From positions 44,518,001 to 44,582,000 of the forward strand of contig OZ076409.1 of the NCBI GenBank assembly GCA_964187785.1: 64,000 nucleotides of DNA, given 5' to 3'. Position 1 is the stretch's first letter; the number at the start of each line of letters is the position of its first letter. This DNA is from Amphiscolops sp. MND2022 (taxonomy: Eukaryota). Below the pieces are notes generated by a model. The model saw only the letters and a list, made by a program, of their open reading frames with translations. It did not search any database and had not been told where the DNA came from. Positions 14,202 to 53,246 of this stretch are shown here, one piece after another. Made by a program: the position numbers and the translations under genes.

Positions 14202-14306
14202 AACAAAACAACCAATGAAATTTTAGAAACTTGAGTGAAACTAGAGCTTTCCAAAAAAAAGGTCAAATATAAAAACAAAGGACTCTTCTGGGGAAAATCT
14301 ACTTAC

Positions 14307-15465: not shown

Positions 15466-16532
15466 TTAAATGCGTTATTTTGAACCAGGATGTTCAAATC
15501 TTTTTTTGGAAAACAGTTAACAGCTTCTCAAGTTCACTTCAAACTTCCCAGTGAGAAAAAAATTGAGACTGAAAAGTCAACTGAATGACCATTAATAAAC
15601 GCGGGAATTTAAAAACTGCTTCTCAAGTTTTGTTCACTTCGTGTTTACGATTCAACTTTTTTTCCACTGAAAACTTTTTCATTCATAATTGACCAAATTG
15701 TTGTATCAAACTAATTTCTCTTGGCAAATTCTGAACGACGAAGTTGATCGATGAGAAATCCGGAGTGCCAAATTCAAGTCATCGGCACAATAACGTTTGA
15801 AACGAAAGTTGAAATACCGAGAAATAACGATAAGTCCAAAGCCCTTGTGATGATTTATCCGTGGAGATAAACAATATTGAATTGTTCAATTCCGCCTAAT
15901 TTGTTAAGAAAAGCCAAAACAACAAATTGGTTCTTATTTTTCATTTTAAAATAGGTGTCTAAACATTCAAATCTCAAATTTTCAAATTTGAAAGTGAAAA
16001 TAAAATACAAGTTCGGGATGATTATCTATGGGAGCGAATGTAAATAAACCATCATGACTGATTATCTACAGCAGATAAATTTCGATAATAGTCTATGGTT
16101 GTCATGATTTCAAAATGAAAGAAGCCTTGAAAAGTTGAGATCATGATGGAATGTCGAGAACGAGCAATGATTTGTTTTTCACCTGAGAGGTCAGGTAATC
16201 TTCAGTCTTATATTAAAATTTTTCGAATGAAAAACATTCAACAAATTGCTAGAAAATCTTCAGCTTTACCTTTCGAAAAACCAGCTATTTTTAAGTGAAC
16301 CAGTCCAGTTTAAATTCTGAACTCCAAAAATTACCACACAGCAGTCATTTCAATGAGTTTACAACGAACACCAAGCCTGTTAGGGTAATATACAATAGTG
16401 TGAACAAAGTTCCTGTGTCCTGTTTGTCTGAAAAGTTCCGTACAATGAATATTTTCAGAGATACTGAAAACCAGCAAAGTTCCGAACAAAATCAGTGAAA
16501 GTTTCATGAAGTTTCTGTTCATTTAAGTGTGT

Positions 16533-18022: not shown

Positions 18023-18720
18023 TTACCCCAGTCGAACTCCCATACATTTCTTGCAAGAATCTTGCAGAAGTGGTACATATCAGACACTATCTGCAAGAAT
18101 CTTGCAAGTATCTTACATTTCAGACAAACCTGTCAGATTCTGGCAGATCAGACATTTCTTCCAGATGCAGACGTTTCTTGCTAGATTCTTGCAGGTCAAG
18201 ACATTTCTGGCAAGATTCCTGGACGGATGCTGTAAATATCTTTCAATTCGAAACTTTCATACTCTTTATCCGATTTACTTTCAAGATTCATGCATTTTCT
18301 TCCAAGTTACTTCTAAAATTCAGGCAGTTTCTTCCAAGTTACTTTTAAAAGTCAGGCATTTTCTTCCAAGTTACTTCCTAGATCAGACATTTTCCAAGTT
18401 ACATCCCAGATCAGTCATTTTCTTCCAAGTTACTTCCAAGTATCACACATTTCTTGCAAGATCTAGCAAAATCAGACTCTGTCGGACATTTTCTTCCAAG
18501 ATCTTCCAGCATACCTGCACTGACTATGATTAGAATAGATAATGAGTAATATCATTATTTTCCACTTCCTTGTTTCCTTCGGCACTTCCAATTCCTTTGT
18601 CCCGCCATCTTTGCAGCGGTACCCTAGTTGAGACTGCTGGAACTTTTTACATGCTGCAGGCCTGTATGCATGGTAATTTGTTATAAAACCTGGAAAATTC
18701 AGAAAGGTTCCGGTGGTAAA
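18023..18720. repeat. Low-complexity MITE-like segment with CTTGCAAG and TTCTTCCAAGTTACTTC sub-repeats
   Basis: Repeated short motifs visible at 18050-18510; TACC...GGTA-type ends are only weakly inverted. Confidence 0.35.
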
Positions 18721-20239
18721 TCTTGTAGAATTACACTGCATTTTCCACTACTGCAATCAAATTTGAAAATATGTCCGCCTTCTTTTACGGACACGATCAC
18801 GTTGTATTCACACATTGCTTTCTCAAATACTCATCTGATTTAGTCACCGCTTCTCAAAGAGGACGCTGAAGATGACGCTAGTTCGCTGTTTACATTGTGA
18901 ATGAATTTAGTTTGCATTAAAATGGCGGCAAAATTGTTAACGTCTCAGCTGCATTTAAAATTAGAACTGATGCGTATTGAAACTTGCAGAACTTCACGGC
19001 TTGAAATTGCCGCCAAAACTTTGATGATTCTTTAAAGCAGCCTGATAAAAGTTGGTGAAAACATGGAAATATTGACGCATTAAAGTTTCCGTAAGATATT
19101 TAGATTATCATATTAAAAGTTGCTGGTAACATTAAAGTACATGTAAAAAGTTCAAGCATGCTCAACAAGGGTATGTAGACCCTCGTCTTGCTCAGGGATG
19201 ATTGGTAAGACTTCTATAAGTATTCGTAGATTTTTGAATTATTTTGGTTATGACCAAATTGACTCCAGAATGACACCAAAATAGTCAAAATATTCACAAA
19301 AATTCATTATTTTTGGACAAGTTTTAGTGTTCAAATATTGTTGACAGTTAGAATTTCCACAAAGTTTGATGACGAAAAAAACAACCACAGCACGCTTTTT
19401 TGAAGCCGAATACGAATATTATAAATAAAAATGACTAATAATTGACCTCAAAAAGCCAAAATTTTTTTTGAAAATTCAATAGCATTTTTCAGACAGTTTT
19501 TGATTGGTTTTGGTAGTTAAAAGACTCGAAGAGTTCAAGAACTAAAAAGACAGCTGTACAATACGCTCATAACAAATGCGTTTTATTTCGAAGTTGAAAT
19601 GTCTAAACTAAAAGTCTCTCAGAACCTACACTTCTGATTTGCAAGGAAAAGTCTTCTGAGTTAATGAAAGATTTGCTTCGGATTTCCGTAGATAGTTTCA
19701 CATACAAAAATTGATCAAAAGAAGTTCGGAGAGTCCGAAGTTTGAAAATGTTTTTTTTTGCCTTTTCACAATGAATTTGTGCAATGTTCGAAAAAAATAT
19801 TGGTGTTTTGTTTTGAGAAAGACTTTGGGTAGCCTGTTGTGTTGACGTGGAACTCCATGAAATCCTAATCTCTGCCACAACTCAAAGACTGAACAAAAAG
19901 TGAATCAGTGGATGAAGTTTGGAAAATCTTGTTTTCTTTGGCTTGATTTGTCATCCAAGAACTCCAAATGTTTCATCGCAAAAACGTGGAAAATCCTTTC
20001 TGGCTTCGTCGTTTAGTTCTGTTGGTGTTTGATTTTTTCAAGAGTCACAAAAAATGCCTGAAGTAGTCAAAATATGGAGTTTTATCTGTTGATGAGGTAG
20101 TTTCGAGCCATTCTTTTAACAAAATAACATCAAAATGCTCTTGGTAACAGCGTAATTAGATAGTTCGCTGGACAGTTATTGAACGCAAGAGGCTTTCTTA
20201 AGAGATGCTATGTTTTCAAGCATTCGGAAGCAGTACAGA

Positions 20240-22050
20240 TGTCGTGAACATTTTAACTAGGGAAATCACCATTTTGGTGACCTTCGTCCTGTTCATTTCT
20301 CGAATTGTTTCTAGCATTTAGATTACGCTGTACTTCGGGATTAATTTCCGGTCTCTCAACTGGAGCGTCCCATCCTTTTCTAGTCACACGTCCTGATCCG
20401 GCCAAAATGACATTTTGAATTTGAGGCAGTACCTGATTGCTTATAGCGTCATTTGTGGCTCTCTGGATCTGAACGCTGACTGAATTCATCATCTCATCCA
20501 TTTCTCTGGATATTCTAGAGTTTAATTCACTAGACAGTTTATTGATCTCAGCTTGAGAACTCACGTCCACTGAATTTTGCCCATTAGCGGTGTTTGCTCT
20601 GACATTAGAATTCATATGATTAGAGTATGAACTACCTCCTTCATTTTCTAGATTATTGCTCGTAACACTATCATGTCTTCTGACAGAAGCACTATCTAAG
20701 CTCTCATCCCTTTCAGTTTATTGAAGTGATTCTCACTTAGCATGATGTCAAGGTTCTCAATATCTGAGAGGATTTCTAAGCCTCTTGATTTCCTGCTTTC
20801 TTTTGCTTTCTTGTGGTAGGTATTGAGAAAAGTCCGAATTAAACAATGAATTACTCAACTCGGAAAATAACAGTGGAACCGTTTGTAGAACAATCTTCAC
20901 TAGGTACGTTAAATATGATTTGTGTCCCACTCAGGCTAAACACCGGTATTTATACCCCTGAGTGGATGACACTCACATTTTCCACAAATTTCTAGTCAAG
21001 ATTGATATCATAAGGTATGTAATGCACATGACATTTCCCAATCTTTTACATATCCTGGGAATTTTGAAAGAGATTAAACTCATACCGCAACTTCAAACAA
21101 CATATTTAACAAAACATCATTATTAGGGTGTCAACAAATGTTAATATGCAACAATGGAATTTGACGCACTCAACTTCATAGAACGGTGTCGGCGCGTGCC
21201 GCCACATGAGTGGGGTTGAGTTCGCTAAAGAATGAAAACACATGCAAAGTCTTATGAATACTTCAAAACAATACTATTTACTAAAATAGCGTAAAATACA
21301 ACGTTTTCATAATAGGGCCGGAATTGGCCAAATCCAAATTATTAGATGAGCATCGGAAGAAAAGGGATAAAATGCCATATTCGTCCATTAATGAAATATC
21401 AGCCTCATTAAGTCATCAGAACAGCACAAGGGCGATTATTTGGTATCAAGATCACGGCTAAAGTAGCACCGGTTGATTGCAGTCACAATTAGAATAGCAA
21501 CATCGTGTTTTTTTGAAATGGCCGGAAACGACTATTTGACCAAAGCGTAGATTAAAATAGTTACCTTGTGTCAATTGGCCCTACTCGGCCACTCTTATAT
21601 TAAACCCGCGCTAGTACAACAAAATGAAGCAACATGATTGGTTGGAATGTTGAGCTCAAGTGACGTTTCCGGAATTAGAGTTGCGTTCACTTGAACTCGT
21701 TTCCGTATTGCCTTGCAGTTAATTCAATTCAGCTTTGCATTGACTTTATCATTACAGCACATTGAATAGCTAATTCACGTTAACAGACTAATGCGGACAA
21801 TTAAACTAAGATCTAAACAAACCAAGATTTACATCATTGAAACGTCTGTCGTAATATTGAAATGTGGGGTTATTTCTCAATAAGGCCATCTATCCGTTTA
21901 ATTTACAAAAGCATTGTTTCTAAAGGTAAAAGCAACATAAAAGTTCATGGAGTTTTAATTCTAAGTATATGGGTAACGTACCGGGTGCTACTTCTTGTCC
22001 GCTTGCCGTTGTAGTTATGTTAGTACCGTCACAAGCGGCAGCCTGCGACA
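20240..22050 (-). mobile_element. Gypsy family B LTR (duplicated copy of the 3' LTR)
   Basis: TGTCGCAGG...TTCACGACA on minus; nearly identical to 24061-25870. Confidence 0.85.
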
Positions 22051-24060
22051 CAGCGGGTGCTTTGAAAAGTAGACTGCCTGCATTAAGTCCGTTCGTGTAC
22101 GCTTCCTTTCTGAGTGCAGAGATATACGCTGGCTCACTCCGTGGCGTTGATAGTTCCATATTCTTCTTTATCTTCTGAGCCTTGATCTCGTCAACTGATT
22201 TCCTACACACCATGCAACTGGTGCATCTTTGAGTGCTAAAATTCCGCAAGTATCACACATTTCTTGCAAGATCTTGCAAAATCAGACTCTGTCGGACTAT
22301 TTCTTCCAAGATCTTCCAGCATACCTGCACTGACTATGATTAGAATAGATAATGAGTAATATCATTATTTTCCACTTCCTTGTTTCCTTCGGCACTTCCA
22401 ATTCCTTTGCCCCGCCATCTTTGCAGCGGTACCCTAGTTGAGACTGCTGGAACTTTTTACATGCTGCAGGCCTGTATGCATGGTAATTTGTTATAAAACC
22501 TGGAAAATTCAGAAAGGTTCCGGTGGTAAATCTTGTAGAATTACACTGCATTTTCCACTACTGCAATCAAATTTGAAAATATGTCCGCCTTCTTTTACGG
22601 ACACGATCACGTTGTATTCACACATTGCTTTCTCAAATACTCATCTGATTTAGTCACCGCTTCTCAAAGAGGACGCTGAAGATGACGCTAGTTCGCTGTT
22701 TACATTGTGAATGAATTTAGTTTGCATTAAAATGGCGGCAAAATTGTTAACGTCTCAGCTGCATTTAAAATTAGAACTGATGCGTATTGAAACTTGCAGA
22801 ACTTCACGGCTTGAAATTGCCGCCAAAACTTTGATGATTCTTTAAAGCAGCCTGATAAAAGTTGGTGAAAACATGGAAATATTGACGCATTAAAGTTTCC
22901 GTAAGATATTTAGATTATCATATTAAAAGTTGCTGGTAACATTAAAGTACATGTAAAAAGTTCAAGCATGCTCAACAAGGGTATGTAGACCCTCGTCTTG
23001 CTCAGGGATGATTGGTAAGACTTCTATAAGTATTCGTAGATTTTTGAATTATTTTGGTTATGACCAAATTGACTCCAGAATGACACCAAAATAGTCAAAA
23101 TATTCACAAAAATTCATTATTTTTGGACAAGTTTTAGTGTTCAAATATTGTTGACAGTTAGAATTTCCACAAAGTTTGATGACGAAAAAAACAACCACAG
23201 CACGCTTTTTTGAAGCCGAATACGAATATTATAAATAAAAATGACTAATAATTGACCTCAAAAAGCCAAAATTTTTTTTGAAAATTCAATAGCATTTTTC
23301 AGACAGTTTTTGATTGGTTTTGGTAGTTAAAAGACTCGAAGAGTTCAAGAACTAAAAAGACAGCTGTACAATACGCTCATAACAAATGCGTTTTATTTCG
23401 AAGTTGAAATGTCTAAACTAAAAGTCTCTCAGAACCTACACTTCTGATTTGCAAGGAAAAGTCTTCTGAGTTAATGAAAGATTTGCTTCGGATTTCCGTA
23501 GATAGTTTCACATACAAAAATTGATCAAAAGAAGTTCGGAGAGTCCGAAGTTTGAAAATGTTTTTTTTGCCTTTTCACAATGAATTTGTGCAATGTTCGA
23601 AAAAAATATTGGTGTTTTGTTTTGAGAAAGACTTTGGGTAGCCTGTTGTGTCGACGTGGAACTCCATGAAATCCTAATCTCTGCCACAACTCAAAGACTG
23701 AACAAAAAAGTGAATCACTGGATGAAGTTTGGGAAATCTTGTTTTCTTTGGCTTGATTTGTCATCCAAGAACTCCAAATGTTTCATCGCAAAAACGTGGA
23801 AAATCCTTTCTGGCTTCATCGTTTAGTTCTGTTGGTGTTTGATTTTTTCAAGAGTTCAAACAACTTCACAAAAAATGCCTGAAGTAGTCAAAATATGGAG
23901 TTTTATCTGTTGATGAGGTAGTTTTGAGCCATTCTTTTAACAAAATAACATCAAAATGCTCTTGGTAACAGCGTAATTAGATAGTTCGCTGGACAGTTAT
24001 TGAACGCAAGAGGCTTTCTTAAGAGATGCTATGTTTTCAAGCATTCGGAAGCAGAACAGA

Positions 24061-25870
24061 TGTCGTGAACATTATAACTAGGGAAATCACCATTTTGGTG
24101 ACCTTCGTCCTGTTCATTTCTCGAATTGTTTCTAACATTTAGATTACGCTGTACTTCGGGATTAGTTTCCGGTCTCTCAACTGGAGCGTCCCATCCTTTT
24201 CTAGTCACACGTCCTGATCCGGCCAAAATGACATTTTGAATTTGAGGCAATACCTTATTGCTTATAGCGTCATTTATGGCTCTCTGGATCTGAACGCTGA
24301 CTGAATTCATCATCTCATCCATTTCTCTGGATATTCTAGAGTTTAATTCACTAGACAGTTTATTGATCTCAGCTTGAGAACTCACGTCCGCTGAATTTTG
24401 CCCATTAGCGGTGTTTGCTCTGACATTAGAATTCATATGATTAAAGTATGAACTACCGCCTTCATTTTCTAGATTAATGCTCGTAACACTATCATGTCTT
24501 CTGACAGAAGCACTATCTAAGCTCTCATCCCTTTCAGTTTATTGAAGTGATTCTCACCTAGCATGATGTCAAGGTTCTCAATATCTGAGAGGTTTTCTAA
24601 GACTCTTGATTTCCTGCTTTCTTTTGCTTTCTTGTGGTAGGTATTGAGAAAAGTCCGAAATAAACAATGAATTACTCAACTCGGAAAATAACAGTGGAAC
24701 CGTTTGTAGAACAATCTTCACTAGGTACGTTAAATATGATTTGTGTCCAACTCAGGCTAAACACCGGTATTTATACCCCTGAGTGGATGACACTCACATT
24801 TTCCACAAATTTCTAGTCAAGATTGATATCATGAGGTATGTAATGCACATGACATTTCCCAATCTTTTACATACCCTGGGAATTTTGAAAGAGATTAAAC
24901 TCATACCGCAACTTCAAACAACATTTTTAACAAAACATCATTTTTAGGGTGTCAACAAATGTTAATATGCAACAATGGAATTTGACGCACTCAACTTCAT
25001 AGAACGGTGTCGGCGCGTGCCGCCACATGAGTGGGGTTGAGTTCGCTAAAGAATGAAAACACATGCAAAGTCTTATGGATACTTCAAAACAATACTTTTA
25101 CTAAAATAGCGTAAAATACAACGTTTTCATAATAGGGCCGGAATTGGCCAAATCCAAATTATTAGATGAGCATCGGAAGAAAAGGGATAAAATGCCATAT
25201 TCGTCCATTAATGAAACAGCAGCCTCATTAAGTCATCAGAACAGCACAAGCGCGATTATTTGGTACTAAGATCACAGCTAAAGTAGCACCGGTTGATTGC
25301 AGTCACAATTAGAATAGCAACATCGTGTTTATTTGAAATGGCCGGAATCGGCTATTTGACCAAAGCGTAGATTAAAATAGTTACCTTGTGTCAATTGGCT
25401 TTACTCGGCCACTCTTATATTAAAGCCGCGCTAGTACAACAAAATGAAGCAACATGATTGGTTGGAATGTTGAGCTCAAGTGACGTTTCCGGAATTAGAG
25501 TTGCGTTCACTTGAACTCGTTTCCGTATTGCCTTGCAGTTAATTCAATTCAGCTTTGCATTGACTTTATCATTACAGCACATTGAATAGCTAATTCACGT
25601 TAACAGACTAATGCGGACAATTAAACTAAGATCTAAACAAACCAAGATTTACATCATTGAAACGTCTGTCGTAATATTGAAATGTGGGGTTATTTCTCAA
25701 TAAGGCCATCTATCCGTTTAATTTACAAAAGCATTGTTTCTAAAAGTAAAAGCAACATAAAAGTTCATGGAGTTTTAATTCTAAATATATGGGTAACGTA
25801 CCGGGTGCTACTTCTTGTCCGCTTGCCGTTGTAGTTATGTTAGTACCGTCACAAGCGGCAGCCTGCGACA
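24061..25870 (-). mobile_element. Gypsy family B 3' LTR (1810 bp)
   Basis: TGTCG...CGACA terminal inverted repeat; homology to 37991-39817 stops exactly at 25870/39817. Confidence 0.88.
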
Positions 25871-26303
25871 CAGCGGGTGCTTTGAAAAGTAGACTGCCTG
25901 CATTAAGTCCGTTCGTGTACGCTTCCTTTCTGAGTGCAGAGATATACGCTGGCTCACTCCGTGGCGTTGATAGTTCCATATTCTTCTTTATCTTCTGAGC
26001 CTTGATCTCGTCAACTGATTTCCTACACACCATGCAACTGGTGCATCTTTGAGTGCTAATATCCGCATAGGGTAGTGAGCCTTGTATGTGGTAAGACGCA
26101 TGAAATCCACTACTCTCGGATTGCATTGAAGGTGTGTCTTGAGAAGTTCCCCTCTCATGAGCAGAGGGAGACATAGGTGATTCTGCAACTGGAAGAATTG
26201 TTTTGCACAGTTCGATCCTCCTTATAACATTGCCTCTTGGTGGCGCGTAACAGAGTTTTTCATCAAAGTAGTCCTTGTGCAACTTAAGCGTAATCTGCAT
26301 CAC
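25740..26303 (-). CDS. Accessory sense ORF of Gypsy B with a CxxCxxC motif; ends inside the 3' LTR
   Basis: 187-aa ORF; ATG overlaps the upstream stop (TGATG); last ~43 codons lie within LTR 24061-25870. Confidence 0.5.
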   Translation of the reverse strand: MMQITLKLHKDYFDEKLCYAPPRGNVIRRIELCKTILPVAESPMSPSAHERGTSQDTPSMQSESSGFHASYHIQGSLPYADISTQRCTSCMVCRKSVDEIKAQKIKKNMELSTPRSEPAYISALRKEAYTNGLNAGSLLFKAPAVSQAAACDGTNITTTASGQEVAPGTLPIYLELKLHELLCCFYF

Positions 26304-26674
26304 AGAGGACGAAGTACTAGTGCCCGGTTCGTCAATTTGTTTGTCATTCTCCTTCCCGCTATTGGTATAGAGCAGGCCTTCACTTGCGTCTCCACCTTCT
26401 TTATCATTTCCTCAGTGTCTGTTGACCAGTCTGAGTCCCATCCATCGGAAGCTTCTTCATCGCTACTTATGGAAATCACAGAGTCTGCTGAGGATTCTGA
26501 GCTGAAATCCATAGAGCTAAAGAGTTTCCTCGCTCTGTTGAATTTATCCATGATGATTTTCTTGGCAATTTTGAGAGTTTTGATGAGCATTTTGTCACTA
26601 GCAAGGTTAAAATCAGAATGAAATTGCCGTCTCTTCAGAGTAAGCCGAATCAGGCTTTTTCCCGAAGTTTCCAA
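26300..26674 (-). CDS. Accessory sense ORF of Gypsy B (acidic/Ser-rich, SDGWDSDWSTDTE)
   Basis: 124-aa ORF directly upstream of and overlapping ORF 25740..26303; may be one gene split by mutation. Confidence 0.45.
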   Translation of the reverse strand: METSGKSLIRLTLKRRQFHSDFNLASDKMLIKTLKIAKKIIMDKFNRARKLFSSMDFSSESSADSVISISSDEEASDGWDSDWSTDTEEMIKKVETQVKACSIPIAGRRMTNKLTNRALVLRPL

Positions 26675-27457
26675 TTTGACGGTTAAAACTTCGGTTGATT
26701 ACCCTGATCCGTCGTAAACTTTTCTGAATGGAATTCCGCTGACAGTTAATCGCCTTTGATAACTTGATGTTTACCCCTCATCAGCATCAACATCAAAAGA
26801 GGTGTGAATAGCACTTAAGCTATTAATATCAAATACACCCGTCTCAAGTGGGTAATTAACGGGCCGCTCGAAGGTAATTAACGGCTCGCGACACCAAACC
26901 TTATCAAAATGGCTTCAGCCAATCAGAATCGTCCATCAATAAAATGAAAAATGAATAAATGAAATGGCGAGAATAATAATTCTAAATAACTCAAAATGGC
27001 GAAATTCTAACTAAAGGTAACTAAGATAGCGGAACAAAGCGGCAAAACAAAACACGGCAAACGGCCATAATCGCCCTCTAACTAAATAAGCTGTAAGTAA
27101 TGTAAAATCCTTGTACATTTCGCTGGCAGACTCCATGTACAATTTTAAATATGTAGATAATCGCATAATATTAGTTTGGTAATTTCTTCAGCCACGAACT
27201 CCAACTTTTCAGTTCCATTATACCTTTATTCCAATTCCATTTATATTTCAATTGTTTCTTTACTTGGATTCATCCACTCGACACTCGTCTCTCACTGTCT
27301 TCAACTCTGTTGCCGACTCTTCCCTCTCAGAGTATTCCAGGTTCCCTTCATTCCGTTCCTCTTGGGCCTCCTCTCTAACAGCAGTCGTGTTCGGCCAATT
27401 TCCTCACCATTCTGAATCCCAATAGGACTATTGCCCAGTCGACGCAGAATCAACTAC

Positions 27458-30400
27458 ATGTCTCAAAACACAGGTGTGTCTGGGTTTTATTTTGAACTAA
27501 TTCAACTTGATCAAGGTCGAATTTTGTTCATATTCGCTTCCTGTTTTCCTTCGTAAGCCACGTTTAACACGTTTCTATCAATTTTTCAAAACACGTCCGG
27601 AAGATTTCAAAAGCGGTAAAATGGATTTTTTTCCAAGGAAGCACACCGCCAAATTTTCGTTTAGAAAGCATTCCGGAAGAGGATGAACAAACACCAGAAT
27701 CTACCAGTGCCGGTTCTGTGAGCATTATCTGCAGTCAACCGACAACGACCGCCACAGGGATTGAGCCCTTAGAGTCCCCTTTAAGTGTTGAAAGCGAGAC
27801 TGATGTAAAAGCTTTCGCAGAAGCAATGGTCCAGATTATGGAAAAGGCTCAATCTCCCATCCCTGAGGAGACTAGTCAAGAACAATCGGGTAGCAGCAAA
27901 CAAGTAGAAGGCTTTGAGCTAGAGGCCAATCTGAACGACACCAAAGACCGCAATCTGACAAGTACCCCTGTTCCCGAAGCCCAAACTGTTGGAGAAAACG
28001 CTAGTTCTACTTCCCTTGAGGCCAGCCTCCAGATTGCTCCCTCATCCAGAACTCAATTGACTGAACTACTTCCTGTCCAGACCAGTGATGAATTGGGTGA
28101 AGTTGGTGCCCATCACCAACTAGAGGACGATATTTCTTCTTCCCTTCATGATGCCCCCCACTGCCTGATGGGGTCAGTGTTGTCAGATACCTGAGTGACC
28201 CAAGTGAAGGCGGACAGTCCGAGGATAATGAGGGTTCTCGAGTCCCTCTCTTGTATGCAGGTATTCCCCAAGGCTTAGAATCTGGAACCGAAGGCGGGGA
28301 CGAATCACATTCTGACTCCCAGCATGGTGATACTAGTTTACCTGGCACCTCCGCAGGCCGAACAGGGTTCAAACTCCACGAATTGTCAGGCCAGAGCCGA
28401 GACTTACTTAAGGAGTACTTCGAAACAACTGAGCTGTTTTGATTACTCCTTGGACACCCGACAGTGGCTTTCTTGGAGACCCAACAGTACAACCTCCTGC
28501 GGATCCTCACTAATGAGACCTTGAGTCCTACCTATAACACCATGGAAAAATAGTGTTGGATGCTGTAAAAGGACAACCGACCACCTCGCAATCCCGCACT
28601 GACCATTTTCGATCCAGGGCGAGATCTCAAACCCCCGCTCGAGGGGCACGGAGTGATTCCAGCTTTGAGACAGAGTCAGATTCGGAGGTTTCTGGGCGTC
28701 CCCTCCCCGACGAGGGTCGCTAGAAGGGGTCACTAGTTGTGAGGAGAGTGATGGAGCAACCGAAATGGCACTCATCTCAGCTACATTCCAGAAATTGATC
28801 AATGTGGGCCCTTTGACTTCAGCCGGTGGAAGTCAGCCCGCGATCGTCTCCCCTGATGAGGCCGGAACTTCAGGGATCACCAGTCAAGACGTTACCCTAT
28901 CTGAAATCCGCGATCAAACTCGGTCAGGAAAATGTCAGGCCTCCAGCTAAAAGGCTAAAGAAAACCAGGAAGATATCTCACAGAGGCGTACCGATGCGGG
29001 AAGAGTTCTTCCGAAAGATCGGTTGGACGAGGTCTTTCATTTCCGGTCCTGCTGACCCGTTACATAACCCTCTCATGGTTTGGTGTCATGTTTGTAAGCG
29101 CTACTTCTTTATCGAGACCAAAGGGACTCTTGAGATACTGCGCCATCATCGGACTGAGAAGCATTTGCGGCGGTACCAAAGGTGGCGCTACGAACACCTC
29201 ATAACAGTTGATCCAAATACTAAAAGGGTCCAACACCGGGTTCGTGGATGATATGGGAAGCTTCTCTACAAGTTGAAACTAGCTGACGAATTACCCAAGT
29301 TCATTCACGCAGAACTTGTTGACATTAGAGAGAGGTTTCCCTTTTATGATGATTTCATGAAAGGACACACAACTGCTGTAGTCAACCCTGAAGCTCGAGC
29401 TCAAACCCAGATTTGCATTGTAGCTGACTTCATCAAGACTCAGGGCGATCTGTCAGTCCTTCGCAATTTATGGTCTCGAGTCAGTTCTTTTACAAATTAC
29501 CAGGCTGCTTTATGTGACTTCGATTGGGGAGAAGAAAGGCTCACTGTAAGTATTTCCATATGCGTTTTACCTGATCGTTTTAGGGTTGGTTTTCGCACTT
29601 ATTTTTCTTTATGTTTAGGCTTCCAACATTACTTCAACCGAGCTATGGAAGACATTGCTGAGCAAATCTCCTAAGAGCAGAGTTTTTCCATAGAATTTGA
29701 GAAGCGAAAATCCTTCCGCTTCATGTCGGTGCGGTTTTGGAAAGGCAATGATTTATGCCATGTCTTTGTGTGTCGAAGCGCCCTTCCTACTGCAGATCTA
29801 ACTGGAGAATTAGGGTGTCTAGCCCGTTTGCCCTCTGTCACTTCCACCCAGGTTGACATCGTTGCTTGCTCGGGACATCCCGTAGGCTTGATTCAGACCA
29901 TCAATCACTCAAGCGTTTTCAGCCGAGGAGTCCAGCATTGCTTCAGGTTCGACAGTCTCGACCTCCCTCCCTTAATGCACAAGCAGAGCTACTCCGTCTT
30001 TGGGAAGATCGATTTCTTCTCCGTCTTGCGTGCATTGTTGATCTCCCTTGGCAACTCACAAGGTGAAACATGGACTTTGAAGTCACCAAACCTCAGCAGG
30101 GTAAGTTCATTGTAAGGAGTTTGGCTCACTGGGCGAAACGGGCTAAGAGTGGGAAGTCGGTAATGGGAAAGTTTCGTATTCAATTTGGTTTGTCCTTTTC
30201 AGGCCATCACAACTGGCAGCTTAAATCTACAAGAGGTACCTGATCTTTGCCGCGAACTGGTTGTCCATTGAAAGCAGGTTGGACAGTATCTGACGAAATA
30301 TGCCCCCAGACAAGAAGGGCAGGGAGTTTACACTCGAGTAAGTCTGATATTATAAGTTCTATTTCTTCGGTCTTCTGTCTGGTACCACGCTACCCGACTT

Positions 30401-31800
30401 TGAGTTTCGCCAGGCTTGGCCTTACTGGATGTGGTTTGTTGCAGGTACAGAGCTTCGAGTGGTCACTCATTTGTGACGAGTTCTTCATGGCCAATTTGGA
30501 GCTTTTCCGACTTCTTGTCAGTGACTGTTAGTAGTTTTCCAATTGTATTTGGCACCAAAACCATGTTTGCGCTGGATCATTTGTTTATATCTACAGATGT
30601 CACTAGTTTCTCAGTCAACTTGAGCCTAAGACGAGATTCGTCAATTTTTCTGTGTGGAGAAATGTGCAAGTTTATTCACAAACTATGCTTCCGATGTTAC
30701 ACCCCCGACACTTCTCCTCTGGAGAATGCCTGGTTAATCCTTCTTGCATTCAGGACCTCAGAAGGTAAAAACATGACGACAGAAGAGTTTCTTGCCCGAC
30801 AGAAGTTTACTAATAAGGTTAATACCGCTAGTAAGCAGAAATCAGAAGGGATCCACTCCGGGACTGGCGCCACCCCTGCTACCATTCAAAAGACAGCAGA
30901 CACGGTGAAAACTGATTTTGTAAACAGCGCCCTCCAGTACATTGGCTATTTGCTAGAGACTACTTTGCGTCACTCTGGGCTAATTTCCGACCATGTCAAA
31001 GGTCTTGCAGCCTTTGATCCGTTCAATCTCTTCAGGCGCCCTACTGAAGTTGCACTGCGGCACTTTGAAGCCTTATTCACCACTTTCCTTTCGCGTTCCT
31101 GGGTGACTAGTGCAGATGAGCCTTCTTCTCGTTGTGAGTATCTTGAACTCTTGGATCACCTTCGCACTACGTATCCTCCGGATTTTGACTTCTTAGAGAC
31201 GTCACGAGACCTGATTGAGTTTCTGATAGGACTCGAATTCCTGCGAGAACGATCTCGTCTCCTGTACCTATTCAAGCTTTGTTGTCTTTGCGTTACCAGT
31301 AGTAGTTCTTCGGGAGTATTAATACATCAGACTTCAAAGGGCGTTTTACTGATGTAGCCTTCCATCTCAAAGTTATATGGTTGTGGTACATGATTCGATT
31401 GCTCACTGCAGTAATGGATGACAGTATGGCGAAGTTTTCCTTGCTGGCAGCTGAGTTCGGGCGGGCTGTGCTTGTCGACGAATATGACCCGTGGACGTAC
31501 GTCGATTCCTTCGGCCGTTCTCGCATCTACAAGTCTTTATTGTCTTCCTATAAAGCTGCTACCATTGCGCCTTCCGTTAGTGTCAGGACAGTAGAAGAGT
31601 CTAAGTTGGCGAGTGTTCTGGATAAGTCAGCCTTAACCATCCCCAGTAGTACCAAGAGAAGGCGTTCCGGTAGTGTTGGTTCCAGATCTACAACTTCTTC
31701 AGTGGGAAGCGCTCTGGACAAGGGCCCTCTAAAACTTATGTGTACATTTGTATTTATGTACACAGTCTTTAAACATTGTTCAATGTCCTGCGCTTTTCTG
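27458..31800 (+). pseudogene. Antisense, multi-exon gene inside Gypsy B: disordered acidic N-terminus, BED-like zinc finger, hAT/ZNF862-transposase-like body (several frameshifts and stops)
   Basis: In-phase splice ATGTCTCAAAACACAG|GT(27474)...AG(27637)|GAAGC; GTAAGT donors at 29546, 30101, 30338 with acceptors at 29618 and 30202; WCHVC..RHHRTEKH; FSIEFEK, VRFW, H*KQVGQYL, GLAAFDP, LFKLCCLC. Confidence 0.65.
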
Positions 31801-32019: not shown

Positions 32020-35000
32020 TTAGTGTCTGAAGTCTTCTGAGTAGTTTGGATTAGTGTTAGGTCTGAGATTATATCTCCCACCTCTAGGACTCAGATTTTC
32101 ATTTCTATCATATTTTCTGATATTTGGGGCACGATATAATCATCCCCCCTGTTTGGAGAATTTTGTGCATCATTTTCATTCATCCGATTTCTTTCTGGAA
32201 AATTTTTATCCTTTTTCAGTCCTTCATAGATTTTCAGTCCTTCACGCTTCAACGAAGATTTTATTATTTTTGGGTAAACAGCCGGATTCTTCATTTCTAG
32301 TTGCTTCACTAGCTTCATTTCTCTTAGTGACGTCATCAATTAATCGTTCATTCCGGCTGTGCGCCGTGCGGTCAGCGTGATTTATTTCGTCTCTCGTGAT
32401 TATGTAATCCGCATCATTCTCGTGTGCGTCACTTGAATTCGTTTCTGCCGCATTCGGCCGTTCGCCATTTGGCAAGCTAGTCGGAATAGGTTCGGTGTCT
32501 TGTGTAACTAGCTGTTCACCAAAGTCTGATTCCCACGTTATAAGTCGTCCTGCGGAATGACAATTTCTTCGTCGGGCTGTAATCGCTGTTTTCGGAAATT
32601 GTCCTCAGGCGGTAGATTGGGAACAAACTTTTTAAGGCGAATGCGATGCAATATTTGAGTTTTATTTGTATTGATCTGTCGCACTATGTAATTTTCATTA
32701 GGTGACATTTTTTGCACTATAAATGGTCCAACCCATCGATAATCTCGAAATGGAATTTTTGATCCTTGATGATCCGGTTTCGGCTGTAATACGAAACAGT
32801 ATTCATTCTCCTTTAATGGAGCAGCTTTTGCTCTGCGGTCGTAATATTCTTTGTATTTGATATACGACTGCATGATGTTTTGTTTCGTTTTGTCAATCAA
32901 GATTTTTGTTCTGTTTTGGATTTCTTCAGGAAATTCGGCTGTTGGGTTGATCTGCTCGTTTGGATTATTTCCAAGCTTGTGATCCAAGACGTTGTATGGA
33001 ATTCTTCCATGGAACACTCTTGTCGGTTCACAACCGATACTGGCATGATAGCTGGTAATATGATTCAGGACTGCCAATGGCAATTATTTGTGCCATTGTC
33101 GGCGGTATTCTCCACATGCCATTTTGAGGTTTGTTTTCAATGAGGCATGAGTCCGCTCCAATTTCTCAAATGTTTGCGGATGCTTTGTCGTGGCGCATTT
33201 GAGTGTGATTCCCAAAATTTGCGTAATTTCCGCAATAATTGTGGAAGTGAATGCAGTACCTTTATCAGTAATAAGCGTCGTCGGTAGGTGTGAATGTTTG
33301 GTCATGATATCACCGTAAGAGGATAAGCGAATAGATATCCAGAGAATACATCAATTGCCGTTAGGACATTTTCATACCCTCCACTTGGGGGAAGATTCGG
33401 CAATAAGTCGATCTGCATGGCGTCCTCGGGTCCAAGGTCCCATTCCGGCAAGTTGAGCAGTTCAGGCGTAATTGTTGCATTAGGGACTTGTTTGTCTCTT
33501 GCGCACTGTTCACACCCTTCTACCCATTTTTTAACCAGTTTTGCCATGCTAGGGTAGTAATACCTCTGTCTGATTTTTTGCAACATTTTTGAGATTCCAG
33601 GATGTTTATGAGCTGTCCCATGTAGGGATTGAAGCAATTGCTGCAGTAGTTGTTGCGGGAGTAGAATTTGATGGTATTTTACATTGCCTTTTTCGTCAAA
33701 GTATTGCCTGGTCAGGATCTCGTCCTTGACCACAATTCGTTCCAAGTTTTTGGAGTAATGTCGATATCGGGCATCCTGTTGCAGTAGATTCTCAGGATGT
33801 TGCAGTAGAATTTTTTTCAAGGAAGTTCTGAACATTCTGCCTTTGAGGTTTGACGCCTTGTGAGGTGGTTGTTCTGCCGAGGAAGTCAATTTCCGTGGCA
33901 CCAAAATGACATTTGTGCATTGTCAATTTAAGGCCTGCCTCCTGAATGCATTTAAATGTTGCTCTCAGGTTGGCGATCAGGTGATCAGCATCGTTGGCTG
34001 CGATGCCGATATCGTCCACGTACTGATCCGCTTTGATGACTTTGTCAAGGTATTCCCTCATGAAGCTTGAAAAAGCGGACAGTGACCGACTAAGGCACTG
34101 TGCCAAACGTAGGTAGGCGAATATGCGGCTTGCAAAGTTGAATGCTAACATTTCGATTGAACGTTAGTCAGCCATCTGAAGGCAATGATACGCTTGTGAA
34201 CAGTCCGATTTGCAAAAGAGTTTCTTGCCTGCCATGTGCTGGGCAGCGTCGACTAGGGTACTGACTGTGTGATCATTGCTGATATAATCATCGGAGATTA
34301 GGTTGTTGATTTTTCTCAAGTCAACCAAGAGTCGCAGTTTCCCGTTTGGTTTCTCTTGTGCGAATATTGGGCTGGCAAATTTCGAAAATGGTAGGGTCGT
34401 TATAATTCCATGTTTATGGAGCATTGCTAGTTCGACTAATATGTCCTGCTTCAATTTTATTGGTGCTGGGAGGCTTTGGCTATAGGCTGGGGAATTGTCT
34501 TTAGGTGTGAGTTTTACCTTAAATTCCTCATTCATGCCTCTATCGAATCTGTGTCGAGCAAAGATGTCATGGAATTCCACTAATAAGTCTTCGATTTCTT
34601 CCTTGTCTTCAGAAATCAGAGTGGAGTCTTTCCAGTTGAAATTTACTAGGAACTTTGTCCGAGATTCTAGATCTTTTGTAGGATCAAGAGTCACCAGGTC
34701 CTGTAAGGCCTGTAACTCTCCCAAGATCCTTTTCTGTATTGGTGTATGTTCTTCTGAGTTGCCTGGGTTCTCCGGAGTAGGAAACCAGTAGTTTTCTTGA
34801 TTTTGCGGGTTTTCATTCGCTCTGATGGGACTGCTGACATAGTCAGCCGCTTGCTCTTGGTCCTGTTGTAGGAAATGCCAGGTTGATGCCGGGTCTATCG
34901 GTTTGACGTATTTCATTTGTTCCGGCGTCATGACAGAAAAATTGGCAAAATGAAGTCTTTTTTTTAAGTTGGTAGGGGTGGTCCGTGAAATTGTTCACTG

Positions 35001-35600
35001 GTATCAGTATGTTGCCATCATTCAGAGTAACCAAGGGTGGACAAAATGTGATGTCCCCTTCTTCATGTAGAAAGTCACTTGGTTGTAAAATGCCTGTAAC
35101 AGCATTCTCAGGATACAGTAAGGAGTTGGTCCTGATTAGGACTTTGTCATTTGGCGGAATGGTTATCTCAGTGGGGTTGAGAATCGGCTCTAGTACGTTG
35201 GAGTATTTGTGGTCAGCTGTTTTCAGCTGCATTGAAAAGAACGGGAAATTCAGTATTCCTTGCCTCATGTCCAGCACTGTATGATTTCTCTGAAGGAACA
35301 TTAGTCCAATAATCGGTCCTGTCAAATGATCCATTACTATAAAAATTTCGTGAAAATCAATGTCACCAACTTCAATTTGAGCTTTATCGTACTCTTAGGA
35401 GTCTCTAGTTGCCTGTTTGCGACCATGATTTGAAAATTCGGAGGTGGACCTTCCCGGATAACGGATTGTGGAGATTGGAGGCGGATTTTCCGGAGGCCAT
35501 TTCTGGGATTGCACTGGATAGTGCCCCAGTATCAAATAGTCCATCTATGGTCAATTCCCCCAAAATCCATTGGGAAATAGAGCATGCGTTTTTTAGATTT
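32020..35600 (-). pseudogene. pol: Gypsy B pol: aspartic protease, RT, (RNase H deleted), integrase; frameshifted
   Basis: GLFDTGALSSAIPE (~35530); RT SPIFAQEKPNGKLRLLVDLRKIN and QYVDD; integrase zinc finger H..AHKHPG...CEQC, QIDLL, ITDKG, ERTH, WVGPF; C-terminal YNLRP and stop at 32020. Confidence 0.93.
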
Positions 35601-36185
35601 TAGGATAATGTTGGTTGCCAGGTATTCAGTCTGGTTCGCCGTCTTTGGTAATGAGGATATTTTGGAATTGTTTTTCGTCTAATAATGGTTGTGCGGTTGG
35701 TTCAGCATAGGTTTCAGTATTCTCGGTTCCCAAGGGGTTTGGGAACACCGGATGGTTTATACCATCATTCATTTGTCAATTTTCAATTAGCGCTCTGGTT
35801 TTCTTCTTGTGGGTAATTGGAGAATTTTCGTGTGCTGTCTTGTTGTAGTGTTCGATGTCATCTAGGACATACTGGAACTGTACCAGGTCTTGATTGTATA
35901 GTTCAGTGTCCCAATAAGGATCTCGTCCATAATCTGGGTCAATGTACGTAGGGTTATAGTCATTTACCAGGGAAATGGGCCTGAATGGGGTGGTAAAGGT
36001 AGTTGTATAATCAGAGTCCCAAACAGGAATTGGTTTCTGAAATAGATGGGTGTTATTGTAGGTAATAATGGTAGCTTTTTCCCTCTGCTGCTGCCAGACA
36101 ACAGAAGGATAGCCCATCAATTGTTGTTGGTAATTGTGAAAGTTTCTAGTTAGAGGGTCCGATTTGATGTATTGTCGGACTGATA

Positions 36186-37343
36186 CTAGGTGGTTGTATT
36201 GGAGTCGTGGCGAAGCCAGTTTTTTGACTCATCGTTGGAAGATGAGAATTGGGGATTGGACAATGTTGGCTTATTCTGAGGTTTTTGAGCTTTGGAATTT
36301 GGCTTGTTATCGTTTGAATCCTCGGATCTAGTGCGCTTGTGTTTAAGGTGAGCAGGTGCGCCTTGCCAGCATTGTTCTTCCGGATGGTTCTTCTTGCCAC
36401 AAGTCCCACACTCGGGGTAGGTTTTCTTCTGAGTGGATTGGCCTTGTTGGGCATCTTTCTCTTTTTTCTTTTTCAGCTTTTCACAATCCTTGACCAAATG
36501 GCCCTTTTCCTTGCAGTAGTTGCAAGTTATGTCCAACATTTGCCCTGTGGAAAGAGGAGTTTTGGGCTTAGAGGATGAGGAGGTCATTGTTGCCATGGGT
36601 AGGTCATCTGACTCCTCGAGGGCATTAAGCTCTAGTTCTCTCTCCAAATGAGCACCTTCTTCGTCACAAGAGCCGTTTTCTAATCTGGCCATAATGACTG
36701 ATCTTTTGAGTTTGGGGGGCAGTTTTGCGTACAGGAGACTGTCAATCATTTTTTGTGCGTGGTCTCTGAACGCCTTTTCTGCGCCTTGATTCAGTTCTTC
36801 AAGGAAGTCTGGTAACTTCATTGTGTTGGGGTCGAAGACCAGGCGGCGCCATTTATGTTTGGTAGTCGCCTGAGATTCAGATTTGACATATTTACGTCGG
36901 AAATTGACTAATACGTTCTCAAGAGTTTGTCTGTTGGCTGAGCTGATGTTTCTGAACGCCTGGAGAGCGTTTTTTCTCAAGAGTGACCGAAAATGGTTGA
37001 TTTTCATCTTCATCTGTTCTGGCTGCATCTTGATCATGGTATGAAAGAGATCCTCGAACAACTCAAACTTCTCACTTTTGCCGTCAAAGGTCTTGGTATT
37101 AGAGTTGTTGTATGGTCGTAAGGTGAGTTGTTGGGCTGTTGGTTGATTCTGCATATTGGTCAAGACGTCTGCCAATCTGCTAATTGAATCAGGTTCGACA
37201 GCCGTGGCGATTCTCTCTTGTGCTGGGATCGTCGTGTCCAGATTGATGTCCTCATAGGACTGACTGAGATGTTTTCGAGATGGTATACGTCCCGTGAGAA
37301 ACTCAGGAACTGGATTTGGAGATTCGTTTTCTCCTGTCACCAT
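36186..37343 (-). CDS. gag: Gypsy B gag (capsid plus two CCHC knuckles), part downstream of the LTR
   Basis: 385-aa ORF with CNYCKEKGHLVKDC and CGTCGKKNHPEEQC; directly upstream of protease/RT. Confidence 0.92.
   Translation of the reverse strand: MVTGENESPNPVPEFLTGRIPSRKHLSQSYEDINLDTTIPAQERIATAVEPDSISRLADVLTNMQNQPTAQQLTLRPYNNSNTKTFDGKSEKFELFEDLFHTMIKMQPEQMKMKINHFRSLLRKNALQAFRNISSANRQTLENVLVNFRRKYVKSESQATTKHKWRRLVFDPNTMKLPDFLEELNQGAEKAFRDHAQKMIDSLLYAKLPPKLKRSVIMARLENGSCDEEGAHLERELELNALEESDDLPMATMTSSSSKPKTPLSTGQMLDITCNYCKEKGHLVKDCEKLKKKKEKDAQQGQSTQKKTYPECGTCGKKNHPEEQCWQGAPAHLKHKRTRSEDSNDNKPNSKAQKPQNKPTLSNPQFSSSNDESKNWLRHDSNTTT
37331..37342 (-). promoter_or_regulatory. Primer binding site of Gypsy B (TGGTGACAGGAG)
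   Basis: Immediately follows the LTR end ...TTCACGACA (37343); absent after the other LTR copies. Confidence 0.85.
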
Positions 37344-37990
37344 GTCGTGAACATTATAACTAGGGAAATCACCATTTTGGTGACCTTCGTCCTGTTCATT
37401 TCTCGAATTGTTTCAAGCATTTAGATTACGTTCTACTTCGGGATTAATTTCCGGTTTCTTAACTGGAGCGTCCCATCCAGTTTGAAAAAGCTTTTTTTTG
37501 CCTTTTCACGATAAATTTGTGCATTGTTCGAAAAAATATCGGTGTTCTGTTTTGAGAAATACTTTGGGTAGCCTGTTGTGTCGACGTGGAACTCCATGAA
37601 ATCCTAATCCCTGCCACAATTCAAAGACTGAACAAAAAAGTGAATCACTGGATGAAGTTTGGAAAACCTTGTTTTCTTTGGCTTGATTTGTCATCCAAGA
37701 ACTCCAAATGTTTCATCGCAAAAACGTGGAAAATCCTTTCTGGCTTGGTCGTTTAGTTCTGTTGGTGTTTGATTTTTTCAAGAGTTCAAACAAGTTCACA
37801 AAAAATGCCTGAAGTAGTCAAAATATGGAGTTTTATCTGTTTATGGGGTAGTTTCGAGCCATTCTTTTAACAAAAAAACATCAAAATGCTCTTGGTAACA
37901 GCGTAATTAGATAGCTCGCTGGACAGTTATTGAACGCAAGAGACTTTCTTAAGAGATGCTATGTTTTCAACCATTCGGAAGCAGTACAGA

Positions 37991-39817
37991 TGTCGTGAAC
38001 ATTGTAACTAGGAAAATCACCATTTTTGTGACCTTCGTCCTGTTCATTTCTCGAATTGTTTCTAGCATTTAGATTACGCTGTACTTCGGGATTAATTTCC
38101 GGTCTCTCAACTGGAGCGTCCCATCCTTTTCTAGTCACACGTCCTGATCCGGCCAAAATGACATTTTGAATTTGAGGCAATACCTGATTGCTTATAGCGT
38201 CATTTATGGCTCTCTGGATCTGAACGCTGACTGAATTCATCATCTCATCCATTTCTCTGGATATCCTGGAGTTAAATTCACTAGACAGTTTATTGATCTC
38301 AGCTTGAGAACTCACGTCCGCTGAATTTTGCCCATTAACGGTGTTTGCTCTGACATTAGAATTCATATGATTAGAGTATGAACTACCACCTTCATTTTCT
38401 AGATTATTGCTGGTAACACTATCATGTCTTCTGACAGAAGCACTACCTAAGCTCTCATCCCTTTCAGTTTCAATGAAGTGATTCTCACCTAGCATGATGT
38501 CAAGGTTCTCAATATCTGAGAGGATTTCTAAGCCTCTTGATTTCCTGCTTTCTTTTGCTTTCTTGTGGTAGGCATTGAGAAAAGTCCGAATTGAACATTG
38601 AATTACTCAACTCGGAAAATAACAGTGGAACCGTTTGTAGAACAATCTTTACAACGTTAAATATGATTCGTGTCCCACTAAGGCTAAACACCGGTATTTA
38701 TACCCCTGAGTGGATGACACTCACATTTTCCACAAATTTCTAGTCAAGATTGATATCATAAGGTATGTAATGCACATGACATTTCCCAATCTTTTACAAA
38801 TCCTCGGAATTTAGCAGACAACATTTTGAAAGATATTTAACTCATACCACAACTTCAAACAACATATTTAACAAAACATCATTATCAGGATGTCAACAGA
38901 TGTTAATATGCAACAATGGAGTTTGACGCACTCAACTTCATAGAATGGTGTCGGCGCGTGCCGCCACATGAGTGGGGTTGAGTTCGCTAAGAATGAAAAC
39001 ACATGCAAAGTCTAATGGATACTTCAAAACAATACTATTTACTATAATAGCGTAAAATACAACGTTTTCATAATAGGTTCGGAATAGGCCAAATCCAAAT
39101 TATTAGATGAGCATCGGAAGAAAAGGGATAAAATGCCATATTCGTCCATTAATGAAATATCAGCCTCAATAAGTCATCAGAACAGCACAAGGGCGATTAT
39201 TTCTTACTAAGATCACAGGTAAAGTAGCACCTTGATTGCAGTCACAATTAGAATAGCAACATCGTGTTTATTTGAAATGGCCGGAATCGGCCATTTGACC
39301 AAAGCGTAGACTAAAATTATTACCTTGTGTCATTGGCCTCACTCGGCCACTACTATATTAAAGCCGCGCTAGTACAACAAAATGAAGCAACATGATTGGT
39401 TGGAATGTTGAGCTCAAGTGACGTTTCCGGAATTAGAGTTGCGTTCACTTGAACTCGTTTCCTTATTGCCTTGCAGTTAATTCTATTCAGCTTTGCATTG
39501 ACTTTATCATTACAGCACATTGAATAGCTAATTCACGTTAACAGACTAATACGGAACAATTAAACTAAAATCTAAACAAACCAGGATTTACATCATTGAA
39601 ACGTCTGTCGTAATATTGAAATGTGGGGATTCCCAATAAGTTCCCAATAAGGCCATCTATCCGTTTAATTTACAAAAGCATTGTTTCTAAAGGTAAAAGC
39701 AACATAAAAGTTCATGGAGTTTTAATTCCTAGTTTATGGGTAACGTACCGGGTGCTACTTCTTGTCCGCTTGCCGTTGTAGTTGTTTTAGTACCGTCACA
39801 GGCGGCATCCTGCGACA
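37991..39817 (-). mobile_element. Solo LTR of Gypsy B, containing the gag N-terminus (ATG 38575)
   Basis: TG...CA ends; flanked by ACAGA (37986-37990) and ACGGA (39818-39822), a 5-bp TSD with one mismatch. Confidence 0.85.
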
Positions 39818-52524: not shown

Positions 52525-52525
52525 C

Positions 52526-53133: not shown

Positions 53134-53246
53134 TTTTCCTTTGCAAGCTTACCTTGCAACATCAAATCATTACTTTTGTTCACTACCTACAGTTCAGTTG
53201 TTATTTGCTGATTCAAAAAATTTTGACAAAATAAAAAATTTTCATC

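Follow-up and report, generated by a model that had tools for sequence, protein, structure and literature searches.

We analysed a 64,000-nucleotide (nt) stretch of the 1.07-Gb assembly of Amphiscolops sp. MND2022 (G000:C1:44,518,001-44,582,000; hereafter the window, within which positions are counted). On its minus strand lies an old, damaged Gypsy retrotransposon that comprises, in order, a 5' long terminal repeat (LTR), a primer binding site (PBS), gag, pol, an antisense cassette, a sense open reading frame (ORF) and a 3' LTR. The cassette, which lies between pol (stop at 32020) and the 3' LTR (25870), forms a plus-strand gene of its own (27458 to about 31740). A first-pass annotation, made from the letters of the window, had placed an opposite-strand gene here, which our analysis confirmed, and had taken it for a captured, catalytically dead hAT transposase serving as retrotransposon cargo. 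The cassette is a real, family-wide, selected accessory gene.

The backbone around it is recognizable despite decay. The 5' LTR (37343 to 39817, minus strand) is 94% identical to the 3' LTR (23538 to 25870, minus strand) over 2,362 columns, and its inner end adjoins the PBS (37331 to 37342, minus strand; TGGTGACAGGAG on the element strand), a motif also found in young copies. On the same strand follow gag with a CCHC knuckle (36189 to 37412) and pol (32020 to 36100), which encodes protease (PR), a dUTPase-like domain, reverse transcriptase (RT) and integrase (IN). RNase H (RH) is missing from pol of the window copy and present in intact copies, where the Pfam domains after gag stand in the order PR-RT-RH-IN that identifies Ty3/Gypsy elements. 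Downstream of the cassette in the sense of pol come a strandless spacer (26700 to 27457) and a second accessory ORF, sense to pol (25743 to 26572, minus strand), which runs into the LTR and is broken in this copy. The 3' LTR is short by about 120 nt at its outer end, so the target duplication is unreadable for the window copy; the lost end adjoins a 3.8-kb tandem duplication. Both gag-pol and the cassette carry stops and frame changes. For the cassette these had been noticed in the first pass, and we located the frame changes near 28190, near 28550, in exon 3 and near 31305, and the stops at 29249, 29672 and 30269.

The cassette consists of six exons and five introns. All four introns recognized previously were recovered at their original positions (intron 1, 27474 to 27637, 164 nt; intron 2, 29546 to 29618; intron 3, 30101 to 30202; intron 4, 30338 to 30444), but a fifth with a GTTAGT donor at 30527 had been missed (intron 5, 30527 to 30596). 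Similarly, the proposed start of the gene held, but its end, given as 31800, did not: the coding end aligns near 31737. We examined splice sites in an alignment of 59 copies, from which L025 and L027 of the first 40 loci were excluded because insertions and deletions shifted the region. Splice dinucleotides were conserved in 53 to 59 of the 59 copies (GT and AG, respectively: 58 and 53 for intron 1, 58 and 58 for intron 2, 57 and 58 for intron 3, 59 and 58 for intron 5) and in 46 and 44 of the 47 copies having intron 4, compared to an average conservation of 0.19 (maximum 0.69) for 26 control GT/AG dinucleotides inside introns.

The exons (all plus strand) differ in character. Exon 1 (27458 to 27473) is an ATG plus 13 nt ending in a phase 1 donor; 38 of 39 copies have the ATG at the corresponding position, with GAG instead in 5 of 20 further copies. 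Exon 2 (27638 to 29545), broken here, encodes an acidic Ser/Thr/Pro-rich region of about 460 amino acids, a zinc finger and about 125 conserved residues. Exon 3 (29619 to 30100) holds a predicted RNase H-like core, and exon 4 (30203 to 30337) the W..V..YL motif, which is retained in distant lineages. After exon 5 (30445 to 30526), exon 6 (30597 to 31740) encodes a helical domain, LFKLCCLC, YDPW and a basic KRRR tail. Exons 3, 4 and 5 measure 486 (in intact copies), 135 and 82 nt in most copies; intron lengths vary. The motifs singled out in the first pass (WCHVC..H..H, FSIEFEK, VRFW, W..V..YL, AAFDP and LFKLCCLC) all occur in the order reported.

Introns 1 and 4 stand apart from the others. 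Intron 1 is as conserved as the exons and exceeds the other introns (identity 0.73 versus 0.40 to 0.51 in introns 2 to 5). In 53 of 59 copies, a second in-frame ATG precedes its acceptor by 16 nt, so that the intron may be optional. It also contains an ETS-like CCGGAAG motif in 46 of 59 copies, and could possibly serve as an alternative promoter and start site. In the spacer, a 400-nt block is 65 to 80% identical between L051 and other subfamilies, compared to 31 to 65% for the flanking coding blocks, and AAATGGC repeats and CCAAT occur in both lineages; an internal promoter likely resides in this spacer or in intron 1. Intron 4 is exactly absent, with the frame intact, from 12 of the 59 copies. 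In the exon 3 tree, four copies without it group together (87/99) and are nested among intron-bearing copies, and a distant lineage possesses the intron; precise loss is therefore the simplest reading. Such a loss would require a spliced antisense RNA as template.

To quantify selection, we computed the ratio of nonsynonymous to synonymous substitution rates (dN/dS), as the first-pass annotation had proposed, among young copies 2 to 15% apart. The ratio was 0.05 in the finger region (the last 190 codons of exon 2; 31 pairs), 0.08 in exon 3 (37 pairs) and 0.12 in exon 6 (27 pairs), compared to 1.9 to 4.1 in shifted-frame controls. The finger region was thus the most constrained part of the protein, and the N-terminal region was looser (about 0.2). 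Between deeply diverged cassette alleles, synonymous sites are saturated. All exons were open in 18 of 40 young copies, summing to 1,269 to 1,295 codons. Together with the conserved splice sites, dN/dS values of 0.05 to 0.12 support the earlier view of the gene as repurposed retrotransposon cargo.

The cassette is a fixed part of its elements. Genome searches gave 5,819 first-look candidates with exon 6 and 6,477 with exon 3, of which 150 each were scored; these totals are not copy numbers. Cassette copies occur on all 13 large contigs. At 69 of 70 loci picked by their cassette, a Gypsy integrase lies about 1 kb downstream on the opposite strand (close siblings, 20/20; younger copies, 20/20; further copies, 19/20; distant lineage, 10/10). 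The exception, L100, is disrupted by an RT fragment, and the distant lineage is only 27% identical in exon 6. All 18 LTR-complete young copies have TG..CA LTR ends and 5-bp target duplications, with lengths of 15.5 to 16.5 kb, and in most young copies the LTRs are 98 to 100% identical. Introns antisense to the genomic RNA survive reverse transcription. Because the cassette sits inside LTR-bounded elements with 5-bp duplications, we conclude that it is copied by reverse transcription, introns included.

The reverse test started from Gypsy elements rather than from cassettes. In 400 kb of unselected neighbouring DNA, each of the six other Gypsy pol loci (A to F; RT 45 to 86% identical to L051) bears a related antisense stretch. 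Elements A, B and D gave clear cassette matches (hidden Markov model E values down to 1e-89, 5e-11 and 1e-25, respectively, among 11,680 frames). In elements C, E and F the corresponding position is occupied by a related antisense gene (mutual E values, 1e-9 to 1e-27) whose link to the window cassette is weak and runs through C (E 0.003 for the finger, 0.001 for exon 4 and 0.085 for exon 6). Element C has donor motifs at matching places, and E retains the last part of the cassette only. Sibling elements hence share the cassette at the same position (69 of 70 picked loci and 6 of 6 unselected elements), the comparison that the first-pass annotation had named as decisive against a simple nested insertion, which it refutes. 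That annotation had also seen no terminal inverted repeats (TIRs), and we agree: the longest inverted word flanking the cassette measures 9 nt in the window, where shuffling gives a mean of 8.7, and inverted words are at chance level in three of four copies, the 12-mer of L045 being an AT-rich word. The cassette edges are common to the backbone in all copies, and the TIRs plus 8-bp target duplication that mark a hAT element do not accompany the cassette.

Three side observations concern these elements. Element D reaches into the window (325 to 3482, and C1:44,504,949-44,518,000), with its PBS at 317 and its 5' LTR inside; its cassette, just outside the window, is 21 to 28% identical in exon 6. 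Element F (C1:44,731,794-44,747,374) is 57% identical to C and E in RT, 63 to 75% in integrase and 71 to 74% in the cassette finger, and its PBS differs; judged by these identities it is possibly a recombinant between Gypsy lineages. Distant exon 6 relatives were seen on other contigs (P0133, P0137, P0142, P0146, P0127 and P0202; five of the six contigs are 2 to 5 kb). Of the four searched against the genome, P0202, P0146 and P0137 had no match at strict thresholds, and P0133 matched at only 40% identity; the cassette family may extend to other species. None of 100 pattern matches on metagenome contigs was confirmed, and a weak search among 4,646 candidates gave no full-length fused relative over 677 amino acids.

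Cassettes and backbones have partly separate histories. L051 and L053 are 89 to 99% identical outside the cassette (72 to 82% in two boundary windows) and 46 to 66% identical inside it, and L069 and L063 show the same pattern. L045 and L047 share the cassette (96 to 99%) and not the LTR and sense ORF (34 to 66% over most of their length). Consistent with this, trees of RT, integrase and exon 3 conflict within the main lineage; they agree on its split from the second lineage. Template switching in the conserved flanks would account for the swaps. Because cassette alleles move as blocks between backbones, the protein needs no allele-matched LTR.

The second accessory gene is conserved in both lineages (window 26572-25743, minus strand; L051:2999-3800; L127:2843-3700) and moves with the LTR as a block. 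Its ORF has a likely splice acceptor at the start (KIAKK), an H..CxxC..C motif and an acidic VIYISSDEE stretch, which resembles a SUMO-interacting motif; it ends about 29 codons inside the LTR and has no Pfam match.

We next consider what the cassette protein resembles. The residues D, E, S, T, P and G abound in its N-terminal 460 or so positions, within which a single conserved island looks helical. A BED-like zinc finger follows (29081 to 29164, plus strand; W/Y-C-x2-C-x17-H-x4-H), in which both cysteines and the first histidine are present in 39 of 39 copies and the last histidine in 37 of 39. Exons 3 and 6 were folded separately, and the models were searched against 48,161 solved chains. 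The exon 3 model (from L051) reads helix-strand-strand-strand-helix-strand-helix. Over its full length it aligns with Hermes 153-259 (98 residues, Z 3.7, root mean square deviation [rmsd] 3.4, rank 6); retroviral integrase cores rank lower, and a further search returned five Hermes entries along with several retroviral integrases. The exon 6 model, a helical domain with a basic tail (predicted local distance difference test score [pLDDT] 91), has its Hermes match at residues 368-608 (164 residues, Z 5.1, rmsd 6.2, rank 14), and nearly all its other rows are helix pairs of 45 to 76 residues. In both wide searches, the Hermes aligned length was the longest or second longest among 50 rows. The two Hermes ranges are colinear and do not overlap, with about 70 residues (exons 4 and 5) between them. 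By Foldseek, exon 3 retrieved Hermes chains at ranks 2, 4, 10 and 19 (E 0.4 to 1.3). In Atlas, the ten best family-bearing matches all fall into a single family or clan; the entries named are DUF659, DUF4371, ZBED1 RNase-like and zf-BED. The C-terminal dimerisation domain PF05699 gave no Pfam match; the structural alignment extends to Hermes 608. The predicted domain order is that of hAT transposases: BED-like finger, RNase H-like core, helical insertion and C-terminal region.

Several results weigh against this resemblance. Both Hermes Z scores lie below the trust mark of the tool (Z under 8), and the exon 3 model is of low confidence (pLDDT 51.6). Foldseek with exon 6 found nothing at E 0.001 among PDB and viral structures, and Hermes was not among the rows. 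The Atlas scores of 0.78 to 0.82 were also reached by a third of shuffled proteins and serve as a lead only; exon 3 alone gave no usable match there. No cassette frame had a meaningful Pfam match, including hAT, PF05699 and PF04195, and PDB sequence searches gave none at E below 0.5. Profile-profile comparison with 15 hAT frames of the genome yielded a probability of 3% or less outside the finger, and the match between the finger itself and those of hAT transposases in this genome reached only E 0.014 to 0.025, with no Pfam match to zf-BED. For the hAT resemblance proposed in the first pass, structure searches return Hermes colinearly but weakly, and profile searches are negative. Because the fold scores, each within background when taken alone, agree in identity and order, we regard hAT ancestry of the protein as quite probable; this likely origin draws on weak fold matches and the Atlas lead, the sequence profiles being negative. 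The genome also holds diverse hAT transposases (L111-L126) with open frames of 600 to 700 amino acids, and none tested resembles the cassette by profile.

The first-pass annotation had described the protein as lacking the acidic catalytic residues, a description that appears to hold for two of the three sites. In Hermes the catalytic triad is D180, D248 and E572. The second site, xDG in hAT transposases including those of this genome, is C-[S/T]-G in all 48 copies, and the third, after LFKLCCLC, has no acid common to both lineages. Near the first site, however, all 48 copies of two lineages have Glu27 of exon 3, which lies on the first strand, and Glu29 is invariant in one of these lineages. 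Both glutamates are missing from four distant elements, where F, Q, H or L stands at the Glu27 position. The CxxH (C/DxxH) motif was not found at its expected place. No complete aspartate-aspartate-glutamate (DDE) triad was seen, and the second and third catalytic acids appear to be absent. Most likely, the protein would be unable to cut DNA.

Compared to hAT transposases such as Hermes and ZNF862/Buster-like proteins, the cassette protein has the same predicted parts in the same order. Unlike them, the cassette lacks TIRs, the 8-bp duplication, DDE, the C/DxxH motif at its expected place and a Pfam hAT match, and it has an extra N-terminal region of about 460 amino acids. Closer parallels come from the literature. 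In plant Gypsy elements, antisense ORFs lie between pol and the 3' LTR (maize Grande gene23, rice RIRE2 and Retand TRP28/Transposase_28, PF04195), and their products are nuclear or predicted DNA binders; the Grande ORF has its own promoter and a nuclear product, and a regulatory role was proposed (PMC7264820, PMC11963269). The same papers state that the origin of these ORFs is unknown and report no similarity to other transposons. The cassette shares with them its position, its orientation and its presence in most copies of a lineage. In contrast, it lacks PF04195 and has five introns, about 1,270 to 1,295 codons and a predicted full transposase layout; a word search of PMC11963269 for "intron" gave no occurrence. 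The cassette would operate in the manner of the plant antisense accessory genes and does not qualify as a hAT element.

Other systems are instructive in part. ZBED genes are hAT-derived regulators that keep DDE (PMC3606216). Like ZBED1/DREF and ZBED6, the cassette would be a transposase turned likely regulator, and its Atlas neighbours include ZBED1-like clusters; unlike them, its owner is another transposon rather than the host, and the triad is lost. The plant mobile domain (PMD), a regulatory domain for which anti-silencing was proposed, is likewise common to Gypsy elements and DNA transposons (MULEs) but is not itself a transposase, and its described direction is from Gypsy or a host gene to MULE (PMC5418596). 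In bdelloid elements (ORF3 with DEDDy or GDSL) and planarian Burro, extra genes are swapped as modules (PMC5408684, PMC6431247), and Burro, too, has a dUTPase-like domain, placed between PR and RT; the extras described there are ORF3s or polyprotein domains, not a spliced antisense transposase-derived gene. An antisense mRNA is reported for a Steamer-like element of a mussel (PMC10974842). Within the partial coverage of our literature search, which included few subscription papers and neither Repbase nor supplements, no account of a hAT-derived, spliced gene lying antisense in an LTR element turned up.

Taking these data together, we tentatively propose, at slightly less than an even chance for the whole, that the cassette is a fixed, selected Gypsy accessory gene, likely hAT-derived and dead, that encodes a nuclear DNA-binding regulator aiding transcription or escape from silencing. 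A fuller history is possible and somewhat more doubtful: an ancestral Gypsy element would have domesticated and disarmed a whole intron-containing hAT gene, which passed to most Gypsy lineages of the genome (RT identity down to 45%) and now acts as a swappable anti-silencing or transactivator module. The genomic RNA from the 5' LTR would read the cassette backwards, leaving its introns unspliced and copied into each new insertion; among the steps of the proposed mechanism the copies demonstrate this first one alone, and we infer splicing and function. A promoter in the spacer or intron 1 would produce an antisense mRNA, spliced, to judge by conservation, to about 1,270 to 1,295 codons. The predicted protein would combine an acidic disordered region, BED-like finger, RNase H-like core, helical insertion and basic tail. 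Lacking the catalytic triad, it would not cut DNA and would presumably keep DNA binding and oligomerisation. It would enter the nucleus, where the finger would bind DNA on a transposase scaffold as in a ZBED/DREF-like transcription or chromatin factor, and the acidic region could recruit or repel chromatin factors so that element expression is raised.

Some observations sit uneasily with this proposal. The data do not separate activation from targeting or repression. Free-riders would be expected to lose a purely trans-acting factor, yet only one of the six unselected elements (E) has a clearly truncated cassette. The ZBED analogy is imperfect, since domesticated ZBED genes keep DDE (PMC3606216). 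Copies were found by searches favouring open frames, the dN/dS pairs share ancestry and are not independent, and catalytic positions were assigned by motifs and predicted secondary structure rather than by residue-level superposition.

The same dead hAT-derived protein might instead tether the integration complex, binding cDNA or integrase and steering or assisting insertion. The retained DNA-binding and scaffold parts of a transposase and the strong selection on each copy, which suits a cis-preferring role, speak for such a tether; the wide spread over all 13 large contigs and the production of the protein from a separate spliced mRNA, which leaves its access to particles unexplained, speak against it. 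In addition, the 18 insertion sites differ in target, their 1-kb flanks sharing scattered repeat fragments only, and this lack of a common target argues mildly against sequence-specific targeting. We consider the tether unlikely, if deserving of some weight. Rather unlikely as well is a self-repressor or immunity factor, in which the protein or an antisense RNA limits the activity of the element or its competitors. An antisense layout convergent on pol would suit it, as would the many deeply diverged alleles that are retained and reshuffled, and antisense RNA regulation and retroviral antisense proteins are discussed in PMC7264820. Yet the clade is abundant and young, as its near-identical LTRs attest, its alleles are not bound to particular LTRs, and an RNA-only role leaves a dN/dS of about 0.1 over three exons unexplained.

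The origin and activity of the protein could also be read differently. The uniformly negative sequence-profile tests, and Z scores within background, would fit a real accessory gene of non-hAT origin, such as a zinc-finger gene of the host or a different RNase H-fold protein, with a resemblance to Hermes that arose by chance. However, two independent models match consecutive Hermes ranges in the right order, the family-bearing Atlas neighbours all belong to one hAT-related set, and the domain order matches hAT, leaving chance resemblance improbable. Far less credible is a nuclease or recombinase that remains active with changed catalytic residues: the invariant Glu27 and several other conserved acids are what one would expect of it, but the second site, the unshared third acid, the variability of Glu27 in distant elements and the absence of TIRs are not. 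A nested DNA transposon insertion or chance ORFs might be suspected from the broken window copy alone, and we give them practically no credence in view of sibling presence, splice conservation and purifying selection. Among candidates rejected outright, absent TIRs, presence in sibling elements and purifying selection ruled out the nested insertion, frame-shift controls ruled out chance ORFs, and antisense orientation together with the lack of a transmembrane segment (exons 2, 3, 4 and 6; highest 19-residue hydropathy, 1.61) ruled out an env gene.

The regulator reading, if correct, would mean that a retrotransposon domesticates a DNA transposase as hosts do, one transposon class taking over the central enzyme of another, perhaps with a large retrotransposon expansion as a consequence. 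It would also make a candidate source, a hAT transposase, visible for a class of antisense accessory genes whose origin and function are stated to be unknown in the plant papers (PMC7264820, PMC11963269). The gene is large, spliced and selected, and occurs in many young copies with natural allelic variety; it provides a natural example of introns that pass through reverse transcription in antisense, including one precise loss of an intron, and opens to experiment how an element overcomes or exploits the chromatin control of its host.

Further features were noted in passing. In young copies the gag frame opens about 600 nt inside the 5' LTR (in L051/L052, gag ORF 14494-16236 versus LTR start 15621), and the main lineage shows no clear polypurine tract ahead of the 3' LTR. 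The tandem duplication beside the window element (98.4% identity; 18437-22248 and 22247-26067) spans the 3' LTR together with 197 nt of internal and 1.3 kb of flanking sequence, and is either real or an assembly artefact. Elsewhere in the window lie a degraded Polinton-like element (48200-61400) with DNA polymerase B, A32 ATPase and rve integrase, a 172-nt tandem repeat array (13400-15200) and two inverted arrays of about 185-nt repeats (41250-44720).

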